Shown here: in pieces, positions 15,743 through 18,733 of the stretch
How positions within the stretch are numbered: the first letter of the stretch is position 1
Layout of the letters: each line of letters opens with the position of its first letter
Assembly (NCBI GenBank): GCA_046714815.1
Contig: JBKKAI010000450.1
Span: 1 to 30,479 of the forward strand
DNA: 30,479 nt
Reading direction: 5' to 3'
From: Terriglobia bacterium
GTDB taxonomy: Bacteria > Acidobacteriota > Terriglobia > JAJPHL01 > JAPKYU01
Translations under genes and position numbers: made by a program
The notes under the pieces: model-generated
Told to the model about the DNA's origin: nothing
The model's input: only the letters and a program-made list of their open reading frames with translations
Databases searched by the model: none

Positions 15743-16882
15743 TTATTTCGCGTTCCGCATCCCGCATTCCGCGCCGGCGGCCGGTTCCGTCGCGGCGGGG
15801 AACAGCCGGAAATACAGCCGCCAGAATGTGTCGAGGTGGGCGCGGTCGGCGTAAATCTGCGCTTCCGAGGCCCGCAGCAACTCCAGCATCCGGCCGGGAG
15901 AGCCGGATGCCGGGCCGCCGTCGGGGAAACGCCAGTGACGCACCCGGGGCAGGCGTGCGGCGGCGATAGCCAGGCCGCGCAGCCAAGCCAGGCCGCGCCC
16001 TCGAAGCAGCAACCGCGCCGCCCACAGGGCCTGCACCACCACCACGCGCGGCAGCACCACGCGCAGCGTGCCGCGACGCGCGTACCGCGCCGCCAGCAGA
16101 AGCTGGTGCGCGGTGATCCAGGCCGCCACGCGCGGATGCAGTTCCGCGGCGCGGCCCTTCCCACCACCTTTTACAGGGCCACCACCTTTTACAGGAGAAG
16201 ACGCGCTGACTTCGTGCCAGGCCACCGCCTCCGGGATGTACCGCGCCTGGAAGCCGGCCAGTTGCGCGCGAAGGCAGAAATCGGCGTCTTCGAGGTAGGC
16301 GAAAAAAGCCTCCTCGAAGCCGCCGACGCGCCGGAACACTTCGCGGCGGATCAGGCAGGCGGCGCCGGAGACGGCCAGCACCGCGCGCTCGCGGCGGCGG
16401 GACGGACTGTCGGGCCGGCCGTAGCCCAGCCGCGCCGCGGCAAAGCCCAGCGAAAGCGCATCGCCCGAGCCATCCACGAGCGGCACATCGCTCTGTTCCC
16501 GCGGCGTGTTGTTTCCGCCCGAACCAATCAGGATCGTTCCCGTGACCATGCCGCACTCCGGATGGGCATCGAGCGCCGCCTCCAGCCGCGCCAGCCACTC
16601 CGGATCGAGCGTCGCGTCGTTGTTGATGACGGCGACGAACTCCGAATCGCTCCCGGCCACGCCGCGGTTGACCGCCGCGGCGAACCCCAGGTTACGCGGC
16701 AGGCGGACGACGCGCGCGCCGGCGCGGGCGGCCGCTTCGGGCGAGCCGTCGGTGGAGGCGTTGTCGGCCACAATAATGTCGGCCGCCGCTCCCCGCTGCG
16801 CGGCAAGCGACGCGATCGAGCGCTCCAGCCGTCCCTGCCCGTTCCAGTTGGGAATCACCGCGGCCGTCCGCACGCGGCTCAT
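15743..16882 (-). CDS. Glycosyltransferase family 2
   Basis: IPNWNG, ADNASTDGS, NLGFAAAVN, INNDA and YLEDADF motifs; start MSRVRT at 16882 in an ATGA overlap. Confidence 0.88.
   Translation of the reverse strand: MSRVRTAAVIPNWNGQGRLERSIASLAAQRGAAADIIVADNASTDGSPEAAARAGARVVRLPRNLGFAAAVNRGVAGSDSEFVAVINNDATLDPEWLARLEAALDAHPECGMVTGTILIGSGGNNTPREQSDVPLVDGSGDALSLGFAAARLGYGRPDSPSRRRERAVLAVSGAACLIRREVFRRVGGFEEAFFAYLEDADFCLRAQLAGFQARYIPEAVAWHEVSASSPVKGGGPVKGGGKGRAAELHPRVAAWITAHQLLLAARYARRGTLRVVLPRVVVVQALWAARLLLRGRGLAWLRGLAIAAARLPRVRHWRFPDGGPASGSPGRMLELLRASEAQIYADRAHLDTFWRLYFRLFPAATEPAAGAECGMRNAK
15745..15772. repeat. Heptamer tandem array (consensus ATTCCGC x4) over the 3' end of a GT2 gene
   Basis: ATTTCGC GTTCCGC ATCCCGC ATTCCGC; encodes the C-terminal ECGMRNAK. 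Confidence 0.7.
16161..16195 (-). repeat. 18-bp-period tandem duplication, in-frame (PVKGGG x2)
   Basis: CCACCACCTTTTACAGG at 16161-16177 and 16179-16195. Confidence 0.85.
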
Positions 16883-17553
16883 CGCGCGAACCTCTTCTTC
16901 AGCAGAAAAAGCAGGTTGCGCATGCCGTCGCGCCACGGCTGCAGCTTCTTCTCGCCCACGCGCGACGAGTAGTTGATGAAGATCTCGCGAAACCGGATCC
17001 TCCGGTTGAGGATGGCCTCCACTTTGATCTCTTCGCTGAAAGCCATGCCGTCGCTTTCCAGCTTCATCAGCGGCAGGATGTGGCGGGAGAAGACCCACAT
17101 GCCCGACTGCGAGTCGCGCACCCAGCGGAAAAACAACAGCGACATGGCCAGCGAAAGCACCCAGTTGCCGAACATGTGCTTGAAGCTCATGGCCTCGGCG
17201 TCCTGGACCGGGAAGCGCGAGGCATTGAGGAAGTCGGCGTTGAGATGCTGGAAGGCTTCGAGCAGGTAGGAAAGCGCGTCCACCGGGTAGGAATGGTCGC
17301 CGTCGAGGGTGATGATGATGTCGCCGGTGGCGTGGCTGAAGCCGCGCTTATAGGCCCGGCCATAGCCGCGAATGTCTTCGTGGACCACCAGCGCTCCGAG
17401 CGAGCGGGCCACGTCCGGGGTGCGGTCGGTGGATCCGTTATCAACCACGATCACTTCATCCACCAGGGACGGCATGCTTTTCAACACCCGGCCGATGCCC
17501 TCTTCTTCGTCCAGGCAGGGAATGATTACGGTGATGCGCTTGTCTTTATACAT
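16879..17553 (-). CDS. GT2, DPM1-like polyprenyl-phosphate glycosyltransferase
   Basis: IPCLDEE, VDNGSTD, RGYG.A, TLDGD and DSQSGMW motifs; start MYKDK at 17553. Confidence 0.88.
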   Translation of the reverse strand: MYKDKRITVIIPCLDEEEGIGRVLKSMPSLVDEVIVVDNGSTDRTPDVARSLGALVVHEDIRGYGRAYKRGFSHATGDIIITLDGDHSYPVDALSYLLEAFQHLNADFLNASRFPVQDAEAMSFKHMFGNWVLSLAMSLLFFRWVRDSQSGMWVFSRHILPLMKLESDGMAFSEEIKVEAILNRRIRFREIFINYSSRVGEKKLQPWRDGMRNLLFLLKKRFAR

Positions 17554-17571
17554 CCGGCAGCGGGAAAAAAT

Positions 17572-18012
17572 AACCACCAAGACACCAAGACACCAAGAAA
17601 ACTACAAAACGATTCTCCGAATACCCGCCTTGATCAACGGCACGTTGAAATTGATCAAAAGGCCGATCCGATGTCCGGTCATTTTCAAGTAGGTCAGCAC
17701 CTGGGCCTCGTGAACGGGCAGGAGCGCGTCAATCGCCTTGATCTCGACGATGACACAGCTCTCGACGACGAGGTCCAGCCGAAGGCCGCCGTCAATGCGG
17801 ATTCCATCGTAGAGAATCGGAAGACAAAGCTGACGCTCGACGGCTAGATTGTGCTTCTTCAGTTCGTGGAACATGCAAATCTCGTAGACACTCTCTAGAA
17901 GTCCGGGTCCTAGCTGCGAATGGACTCGATATGCCGCGTCAACGACGAGTTTCGCGACCCGATCCACGCTTTCCGAGACCGGCTCTCTTGGTGTCTTGGT
18001 GCCTTGGTGGTT
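17572..18012. mobile_element. Candidate cassette: GxxExxY gene bounded by a 27-bp inverted repeat made of 8-bp units
   Basis: Left arm AACCACCAAGACACCAAGACACCAAGA (17572-17598). Right arm TCTTGGTGTCTTGGTGCCTTGGTGGTT (17986-18012), whose reverse complement matches the left arm 26/27. Interior is about 55% GC by hand count versus about 70% in a sampled flanking GT line. Mobility is inferred, not shown. Confidence 0.6.
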
Positions 18013-18015
18013 CAT
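17602..18015 (-). CDS. GxxExxY protein (PD-(D/E)xK nuclease-like, PDDEXK_3 family)
   Basis: LGPGLLESVYE signature and RLDLVVE..IVEIKA (D...ExK intact); 137 aa. Confidence 0.93.
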   Translation of the reverse strand: MNHQGTKTPREPVSESVDRVAKLVVDAAYRVHSQLGPGLLESVYEICMFHELKKHNLAVERQLCLPILYDGIRIDGGLRLDLVVESCVIVEIKAIDALLPVHEAQVLTYLKMTGHRIGLLINFNVPLIKAGIRRIVL

Positions 18016-18055
18016 TTTCCTACCGGACTTCCGTGCAGGCCTCGCCGGAAGCCCG

Positions 18056-18733
18056 CTACGGATTCTGCTTTCGCGGGGGAGCCGCTTTCTGTGCCGCGGA
18101 CGCGCCGGCTTTGCCCGCCGGGGCGGCTTTGCCTGCCGGGGCGGCTTTGCCTGCCGGGGCGCCGCGTCCCTTCTTACCCGCCGGTGGATCAGAGGGCATC
18201 AGCCTCCGAATCGTGGCTTCCAGGTTGCCTTCCAGGCTTCCGAACCACTCCTGGTTACCAGCCATGTCCGGGTCGCGCTCCTCGAGGATCTTGCCGTCCG
18301 GCCCGACGAAAAAAAACGTCGGCACGTGGTATTGCGGCCGGGCCGGCCCAATTCCCAGGTAGTTGATGGCCACGATGCGGTCGCCGATTACCACCGGGTA
18401 AGTGACCCCATGGTCCTTGTCGGAGGTGTATCTTCGGATGGCGTCCAGCGCGCGGGCCGGCGCTTCGTCGGTGACGTAGATGCCCACCACTTCAAACTTT
18501 TGGTTGCCGAACTCTGTATAAAGCTTCTGCATAACGCGGCCCGCGCGTTGGCAGACCGGTCAGGTGGGCGAAAGAAACTCCACCACCACGAACTTCCCGC
18601 GCAGGCTGGAAAGAGTGATCTGCTTTCCGTCGGGCGTCGGCAGGGTGAAATCGGGCGCATTGCGGGCGAGGGCAGCGGGCGCCGCCAGCAACACGGCCAG
18701 GAGCGCGGACGAAAAAAAGCGGTGTTGGTTCAT
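18056..18733 (-). CDS. Secreted TlpA/ResA-like thioredoxin-fold protein, predicted selenoprotein (U58-P-V-C)
   Basis: ATG 18733 (ATGA overlap with the upstream stop) gives a signal peptide, then APDFTLPTPDGKQITLSSLRGKFVVVEFLSPT-TGA-PVC. The TGA (18562-18560) is in frame with the ORF-track fragment 18056..18532. 225 codons. Confidence 0.85.
18107..18160 (-). repeat. 18-bp tandem repeat x3 encoding an APAGKA basic tail
   Basis: GGCTTTGCCYGCCGGGGC x3 on the + strand. Confidence 0.85.
18528..18553 (-). promoter_or_regulatory. Putative bacterial SECIS hairpin
   Basis: Downstream of UGA: UGC-C-AACGCG-[CGGGC]-CGCGUU-AU-GCA. The G-containing apical loop starts 17 nt after UGA. Confidence 0.6.

Follow-up and report, generated by a model that had tools for sequence, protein, structure and literature searches.

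A GxxExxY nuclease gene between inverted octamer arms: a candidate mobile cassette in a Terriglobia glycosyltransferase operon

A small nuclease gene enclosed by inverted arms

The DNA analysed here is a 30,479-nt stretch (the window) on contig C450 of a metagenome-assembled genome (MAG) of a Terriglobia bacterium (G000; 754 contigs, 3.85 Mb, 65% GC, 71% complete). A run of glycosyltransferase and methyltransferase genes on its minus strand contains a small gene for a GxxExxY protein, and this gene is enclosed by an inverted repeat (Table 1). A repeat search matched the two arms at 26 of 27 positions, and the repeat extends to 33 nt with 91% of positions matched (17566-17598 and 17986-18018), lengthened by the T-tract behind the 3′ arm, which pairs with GGAAAA in the leader. 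On an ungapped score the repeat reaches 24; none of 1,500 random pairs of windows with the same geometry, taken from this genome, reaches 14. The sole mismatch within the arms is A 17582 versus C 18002 on the plus strand, which becomes a G-U pair in the minus-strand sense RNA. Read in the sense direction, the cassette consists of an A-tract and ribosome-binding site, the ATG, three 8-nt units, the remainder of the open reading frame (ORF), the stop codon, the units in inverted order, and a T-tract; the ATG of the family-2 glycosyltransferase (GT2) gene lies 9 nt beyond.

Table 1. Positions of the nuclease gene, its arms and the adjoining host genes in the window
Feature	Position	Strand	Description
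GxxExxY / PDDEXK_3 nuclease gene	17602-18015	minus	137 aa, starts MNHQGTKTPR; profile matches TIGR04256, PF13366
5′ arm (sense)	17986-18012	minus	three CACCAAGR octamers; encodes residues 2-10 (NHQGTKTPR)
3′ arm	17572-17598	minus	three octamers, inverted; first base is the fourth after the TAG stop
Leader	18016-18032	minus	sense GGAAGTCCGGTAGGAAA; non-coding, contains ribosome-binding site; aligns to C15 host gene end
T-tract (sense; A-tract on plus strand)	17563-17571	minus	3′ limit of homology to the C15 copy
Upstream host gene, 158-aa thioredoxin-fold protein	18056-18532	minus	weak AhpC/TSA match; Ala/Gly/Lys-rich repeat tail
Downstream host gene, DPM1/AglJ-like GT2	16879-17553	minus	profile matches

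The segment differs from its surroundings in composition, with a GC content of 0.53-0.57 over 17400-18100 and of 0.60-0.72 in both flanks. No promoter-like site was found within the cassette, which appears to depend for its expression on transcripts that read through from the gene upstream; at 18 of the 24 cassette loci scored with a crude ORF caller, the upstream neighbour has the same orientation as the cassette. At this locus that neighbour is the thioredoxin-like gene, whose Pfam match to AhpC-TSA (9e-5) is under the curated cut-off. Three 18-nt tandem repeats at 18101-18161 form part of its 3′ end and encode an Ala/Gly/Lys/Pro-rich tail (AGKAAP-like).

An earlier reading of this DNA from its letters alone (the sequence-only reading) had described arms of about three octamers with 26 of 27 positions identical, one arm encoding the first codons and the other beginning 4 nt past the stop, a gene of about 55% GC below that of its neighbours, and a single mismatch that is a G-U pair in sense RNA. 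The repeat search, the ORF translation and the measured composition agree, and that observation of the gene and its arms is confirmed in every detail. Its description of a tightly coupled operon needs one qualification: the minus-strand glycosyltransferase and methyltransferase genes do abut or overlap, with one exception, an interval of about 200 nt at 18532-18730.

The protein is predicted to be a hydrolytic nuclease core

The 137-aa protein matches both TIGR04256 (GxxExxY; 1e-42, 145 bits against a curated cut-off of 35) and PF13366 (PDDEXK_3; 9e-41, 139 bits against a curated cut-off of 22). The motif residues G38, E41 and Y44 are invariant across 26 aligned sequences, and so are D81, E91 and K93, which bears out the earlier statement that the D...ExK motif is intact. 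An AF2 model (pLDDT 87) has a restriction-endonuclease-like core, with Cas4 SSO0001 as its best fold match in the PDB (E 3e-3, TM 0.50) and lambda exonuclease and Hjc among the others; a PDB sequence search returned nothing, and there is no close solved relative by sequence. By fold and motif, we predict that the protein is a PD-(D/E)xK hydrolytic nuclease core of roughly 115 residues. PDDEXK_3 is its sole domain, and no recognised transposase (DDE, serine, tyrosine or HUH) was found in it. A search for defence systems (PADLOC) gave weak Cas4 matches only and no known defence-system family, and a PHROGs search gave no match. In the literature, GxxExxY, PF13366 and TIGR04256 are mentioned in passing, with the function given as 'unknown', and we found no paper that describes the combination of a GxxExxY gene with repeat arms.

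Relatives of this protein are abundant: one search returned more than 7,900 at E ≤1e-20. The best 120 homologs are 63-75% identical to the window protein and nearly all begin with MNHQ[GD]TK[TA]PR. The few whose source is named come from Acidobacteriota, Planctomycetota, Armatimonadota, Verrucomicrobiota and one bin labelled Nitrosotalea, so that relatives at this level of identity occur in at least five phyla. The conserved decapeptide is encoded by the arm and is not part of the domain, and the AF2 model predicts it to be disordered (pLDDT <50 for residues 1-8); where it varies it does so mainly at the purine (R) spacer bases of the octamers. A near-invariant yet disordered peptide that varies at spacer purines therefore points to constraint on the nucleotides and not on the residues. 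Two metagenomic homologs (P0062 and P0064) have the N-terminus MNHQDTKTPRHQDTKTPRHP, in which the arm-encoded peptide is duplicated; the arm has therefore grown by three octamers, and array length changes as slippage predicts.

The cassette occupies a spacer that is short in relatives

Orthologs of the GT2 gene (63-84% identity) occur in 19 relatives, and in G002-G006 and G010 a thioredoxin-like ortholog lies directly 5′ of it. The sequence-only reading had proposed looking for an empty site between these two genes, and five relatives (G002, G004, G005, G006 and G010) provide one: they carry both host genes 4-73 nt apart without the cassette, as compared with 502 nt here. These five relatives show that the window cassette is an insertion into a short operon spacer. 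The orthologous spacer of G003 (locus L043, contig C486) holds a gene-less hairpin of GCGGATT/AATCCGC units, which belong to another arm family.

As the sequence-only reading had noted, no convincing target-site duplication is present at the window site. We considered GCCTGCACGG, to the left, and GCTGCCGG, to the right, as an imperfect direct repeat whose two halves correspond to one GCCTGC(C)G(T)GG of the empty sites, and rejected it as too weak and gapped. Donor flank, or microhomology with the target GGTCC(C)GG, explains part of the left junction better. Likewise, none of 32 gene-less (solo) elements (15 from G008 and 17 from G003) has a target-site duplication of at least 3 bp above expectation.

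A decayed sister copy marks the donor site

Contig C15 of this genome carries another member of the subfamily, which is flanked by the same arms and has lost codons ~11-88; its neighbours are a cpaF/tadA-like ATPase gene on one side and a tadB-like gene on the other. At the same junction G003 carries an intact cognate cassette, whose protein is 71% identical to that of the window, and in G007 and G010 the junction is empty. The copy on C15 is preceded by the last codons of the host gene, E-V-R-stop, which are host-derived: they are conserved in the orthologs of G001, G003, G007, G008 and G010. The same 17 nt, with two differences, form the leader of the window cassette, where they are non-coding. 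A 17-nt match with two differences cannot be an assembler join. Furthermore, over a shared 138-nt segment of the gene the C15 and C450 copies are 81% identical, and either one is 65-66% identical to the G003 copy.

The window leader is homologous to the end of the C15 host gene, and C15 contains a decayed sister copy; these alignments show that the window cassette was copied within this genome from the cpaF-tadB junction, along with about 17 nt of donor flank. The simplest history that fits would be an old insertion at the cpaF-tadB junction common to G003, a copy made in the G000 lineage to the glycosyltransferase spacer, and subsequent decay of the donor. The relation between C15 and C450 is direct evolutionary evidence of cassette movement. 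By the same alignment, the 5′ end of the moved segment was not cut at the arm; the carried donor flank argues against clean cutting at the arm ends, at least in this event.

Short-period hairpins whose units are unrelated in sequence have also entered the cpaF-tadB junction more than once. In G001 (L113, contig C92) the hairpin there has units of the CAGCTTTC type; that of G008 (L116, contig C3) has six GGCAAAA units in each arm.

Gene and arms diversify together

Matches to TIGR04256 occur in 26 of 41 genomes of the class, and many genomes carry several cassette families side by side. We surveyed 68 GxxExxY gene loci from 27 related genomes for flanking inverted repeats that score at least 14 and found such arms at 45 (66%), compared with 0 of 1,500 control windows. 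Their architecture is shared as well: the units each have a 7-nt core that fits C-R-C-N-R-A-K, followed by a free spacer base, and 35 of the 45 elements have at least two such units in the 5′ arm, at periods mostly of 8-10 nt (0.8% of random windows). Arm similarity tracks protein distance (Mantel r 0.49, which none of 2,000 permutations reaches). It had been proposed that such repeats should flank GxxExxY homologs and co-vary with the protein, and these counts answer in the affirmative on both points.

Comparison of the window cassette with its G003 relative separates the constraint on the arms from that on the protein. Codon positions 1, 2 and 3 are identical at 70%, 84% and 43%, whereas the arms are identical at 29 of 33 and 23 of 25 positions; the arms are therefore constrained as DNA. 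Taken together, the comparisons indicate arms held at the DNA level far above synonymous sites, and a gene and arms that are inherited and diversify together. The view that gene and repeats form one unit, put forward from the sequence alone, is supported by the empty sites, by the co-variation of arms and protein, and by the copy event that moved gene, arms and flank.

Gene-less hairpins are abundant where the cognate gene is present

Arms of this type are also found without a gene between them. A strict 20-nt array pattern occurs eight times in this genome, as against 0.0003 occurrences expected from base composition, and a relaxed pattern finds 19 CACCAAGR arms in the MAG. Outside the cassette these are single arms or short-loop hairpins. 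Most directly follow a stop codon, many lie between convergent genes, and A- and T-tracts flank them. Across 41 genomes, the 20-nt pattern with up to two mismatches gave 135 matches in G003, 27 in G000, 15 in G038 and at most seven in each of the other 38, and reversed-pattern controls gave 0-4 per genome. The cognate protein is present only in G000 and G003 among these genomes, the next best match being 56% identical. The genome-wide count that the sequence-only reading had proposed bears out an association in that arms abound in the genomes with the cognate gene; the association is imperfect, as G038 illustrates. In addition, kinship between G000 and G003 may explain part of the abundance by shared ancestry.

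Most of the 18 solos that we retrieved from G003 are palindromic almost throughout: they span ~48-65 bp, each arm has three units, and the loop measures roughly 0-20 nt. Their mismatches fall at the same degenerate unit positions. As a family they are uniform and sharply bounded, and so is a solo family of ~107 bp with a CACAGAG unit in G008. This genome also holds 45 CRCAGAG arms and 31 CRCNGAT arms, each type with its own GxxExxY gene or remnant. A prediction set in advance for the pairing of CACAGAG arms with a gene held in two of four genomes; with the strict pattern there were none in G035 and G022. Both G007 and G008 have many CACAGAG arms, but their genes are only near-cognate (CACCGAG-armed). 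We conclude that the association of arms with genes is real and not strict.

Public reads give a similar picture. Part of 17300-18300 was present in 21 read runs (share ≤0.18), and in the best four of these the reads were mainly the arms as gene-less hairpins of other organisms, with no contig that spans the locus. In two metagenomes only the window's two arms were present at high depth, joined by 13-40 unrelated bases and set in varied flanks. No RNA run contained the locus.

The genome G038 (99% complete) has no cognate GxxExxY gene, and its 15 arm matches are degenerate, none of them exact; these are perhaps orphans left after gene loss. In the genome studied here, positions 1-300 of contig C726 contain a gene 3′ end like that on contig C80 (3567-4015), followed by a copy of ~125 nt of the C80-type cassette that is internally deleted and keeps the leader and first codons between CACAGAG arms, and is thus a MITE-like derivative.

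The distribution of the solos bears on an alternative in which the repeats belong to the host and the nuclease guards them, much as Ssn does with its NTS. The hairpins would be useful as terminators or as marks on single-stranded DNA, the nuclease would act on them in trans, for instance on single-stranded DNA that is entering the cell or being replicated, and the repeats would flank the gene for autoregulation or co-inheritance and not for its own mobility. Solos just past stop codons, often between convergent genes and with A/T-tracts like those of bidirectional terminators, are what this alternative would lead one to see, as is the abundance of arms where the cognate gene is present, and Ssn itself is a published precedent of a different fold (PMC11893778). 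However, the cassette is insertion-polymorphic and was copied between loci in this genome, relatives that are 63-75% identical reach at least five phyla, and many single genomes hold several cassette families; for these reasons we regard a host repeat with a guardian nuclease as rather unlikely.

The arms carry the signature of DNA units and not of a selected RNA stem

The inverted arms could instead act in the operon transcript, pairing so as to hide the start codon, with RNase III looping out or cutting the paired segment and selection acting on the pairing. A model of this kind was one of two that the sequence-only reading had offered. In its predicted fold, the sense RNA of 17555-18030 closes on a stem of 31 bp, in the MFE structure as in the centroid (z = -6.2); this predicted stem encloses the ORF and buries the start codon. 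The G-U nature of the only mismatch in the window arms and the predominance of cassettes 3′ of a co-oriented gene also agree with such a device.

If pairing in RNA were selected, an excess of G-U over A-C mismatches would be anticipated in the sense strand. Over 45 elements (1,308 aligned nucleotides) the arms have 120 mismatches, of which 33 are G-U and 29 are A-C (p = 0.70), and 58 are transversions; this wobble test lends no support to a selected RNA stem. Furthermore, the arm sets, read by eye and not counted, have their mismatches mostly at the inter-unit spacer or at unit position 4, with the core mostly intact, and the G003 solos behave likewise. Mismatches so placed, with no G-U excess, form the pattern of repeated protein-recognition units and not that of a selected duplex. 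The physical half of the earlier proposal stands, in that the 31-bp stem can form; for its evolutionary half no signature was found, and a selected RNA device is improbable. We suggest that the arm-arm stem in RNA is probably a consequence of the arms, and that, as the fold predicts, it may limit translation of the nuclease on read-through transcripts. A comparable effect limits translation from read-through transcripts in IS10.

A proposed mechanism

On balance, we lean towards a model in which the window holds an inserted repeat-armed cassette whose arms are DNA recognition arrays, and in which cuts made by the encoded nuclease let host repair copy the DNA that the arms bound. The arrays would be read as DNA, most likely by the encoded Cas4/RecB-like hydrolytic nuclease itself. 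Cutting would be followed by host repair or recombination that copies the arm-bounded DNA to new gene junctions, and both the cassette and the gene-less hairpins would be copied in this way without duplication of the target. A hydrolytic nuclease cannot carry out strand transfer itself, which fits the absent target duplication and the imprecise 5′ end. The same property counts against the model, as the protein has a hydrolytic nuclease core only and no known transposase chemistry. The other model of the sequence-only reading, a minimal mobile element resembling REP/RAYT, comes closest to what was found, with gene-less hairpins abundant in genomes that have the cognate gene; what counts against it is the missing target-site duplication and the donor flank, which speaks against clean cutting at the arm ends.

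A broader version of this proposal is that GxxExxY cassettes are a distinct and very widespread form of autonomous selfish DNA, in which a hydrolytic nuclease of roughly 115 residues reads the tandem 7-nt units in its own arms and host repair copies the arm-bounded DNA to new gene junctions, with no target duplication and at times with donor flank; the same activity would amplify the short-period hairpins found at the gene ends of many bacteria and some archaea. We offer this generalisation tentatively; it is possible but doubtful at present.

We regard it as improbable that the hairpins spread by some other means and that the gene is a homing passenger, which would cut cognate hairpins that lack it and be placed at their centre by repair. 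In favour of this alternative, the gene always lies exactly between the arms, solos far outnumber gene-bearing copies, and the fold neighbours include nucleases that process junctions and ends (Hjc, lambda exonuclease and Cas4). Against it, no cognate hairpin is present at the empty sites of either locus (the glycosyltransferase spacer and the cpaF-tadB junction), and the window copy brought along non-homologous donor flank from beyond the arm; homing from arm to arm would not transfer such flank.

Relation to known systems

Comparison of the repeat-armed cassette with characterised elements reveals partial likenesses to several of them; the nearest published ones are REP/REPIN with RAYT and the Ssn nucleases, which share its logic and differ from it in fold, chemistry and repeat architecture. 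REP and REPIN sequences are dispersed extragenic palindromes that lie mostly after genes and between convergent genes; one or a few RAYT genes are flanked by inverted copies of their own repeats, and the repeat families are specific to gene lineages (PMC3116915; PMC3733652). The cassette gene is similarly flanked by inverted, dispersed, extragenic palindromic repeats, and the gene-less hairpins would correspond to non-autonomous copies. However, RAYT is a Y1/HUH transposase (IS200/IS605-like) and the cassette protein a PD-(D/E)xK nuclease; REP repeats have a GTAG or CGTC tag at one end (PMC3733652), whereas the cassette arms start with AACCACC or TTAGCCAC and have no such tag; the arms are tandem 7-nt cores, with periods mostly of 8-10 nt, and not a single palindrome; and the cassette gene starts inside its own arm.

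A second comparison is with Ssn (SsnA), a GIY-YIG nuclease specific for single strands that was shown experimentally to cut next to its own NTS/SRM repeat and has been interpreted as a host function that modulates transformation (PMC11893778). Both systems have a small single-domain nuclease gene with its own multi-copy hairpin repeat on both sides, and in both the repeat variants track the nuclease variants. They differ in fold (GIY-YIG, cd10448, versus PD-(D/E)xK) and in repeat architecture; Ssn cleavage is known from experiment and the cassette from sequence alone, and the GxxExxY cassette is itself insertion-polymorphic.

Like transposons with terminal inverted repeats and their MITEs, the cassette is bounded by terminal inverted repeats in which several sub-sites recur, is missing from the corresponding sites of relatives, and has uniform derivatives that keep the ends and lack the gene (about 50 bp long in G003 and about 107 bp in G008). 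In contrast to them, the cassette has no recognised transposase and no detectable target-site duplication, and one copy event carried donor flank. Intervening sequences of 23S rRNA that contain an internal ORF are excised by RNase III, and the small ORF inside a long inverted repeat, with a stem possible in the host transcript, recalls them; however, the cassette lies in the spacer of an mRNA operon, its arms lack a G-U or compensatory signature, and they also occur elsewhere as short DNA palindromes. Homing endonuclease genes split an intact recognition site that the empty allele carries; the empty spacers of G002-G006, G007 and G010, by contrast, contain no arm-like sequence.

The findings tie PF13366/TIGR04256, a very large family without an established function, to a predictable DNA partner, the flanking repeat array, which can often be read from the first ten residues of the protein. 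Because the partner is predictable, function is directly testable with purified protein and its own arms. If the proposed mechanism is true, it would account for a common class of short-period hairpins at the junctions of genes, and next to the REP/RAYT and SRM/Ssn partnerships it would place one based on a PD-(D/E)xK nuclease. The copy made within one genome, with its donor flank, gives a tangible lead on the way in which such cassettes spread.

Cassettes in other contexts

Three more loci place related cassettes between lexA and imuB-dnaE2, between carA and carB, and on a short contig, and the 3′ arm is present in all three. In the first of these (L108, a Planctomycetota contig; 2501-2914), the cassette ATG overlaps the lexA stop codon (ATGA) and the cassette separates lexA from a DUF6504-imuB-dnaE2 mutagenesis cassette; with its start at the lexA stop, the nuclease may share the expression of the SOS regulon at this locus. 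A contig of GCA_035519235.1 labelled Candidatus Nitrosotalea (L107) carries a CACCAAG-type cassette whose protein is 69% identical to that of the window. It adjoins bacterial-looking genes for a PAS/response-regulator protein and a succinyl-CoA ligase, and behind its degenerate 3′ arm comes a second arm in direct orientation; this would mean a transfer of the element between domains, unless the contig was binned wrongly. Finally, in the genome studied here, a paralogous GxxExxY gene with CGCAGAG arms (L001; contig C68, 799-1152) is in one 389-aa frame with the upstream gene, and as no stop codon separates the two, the host protein may acquire a C-terminal extension made of the translated arm and nuclease.
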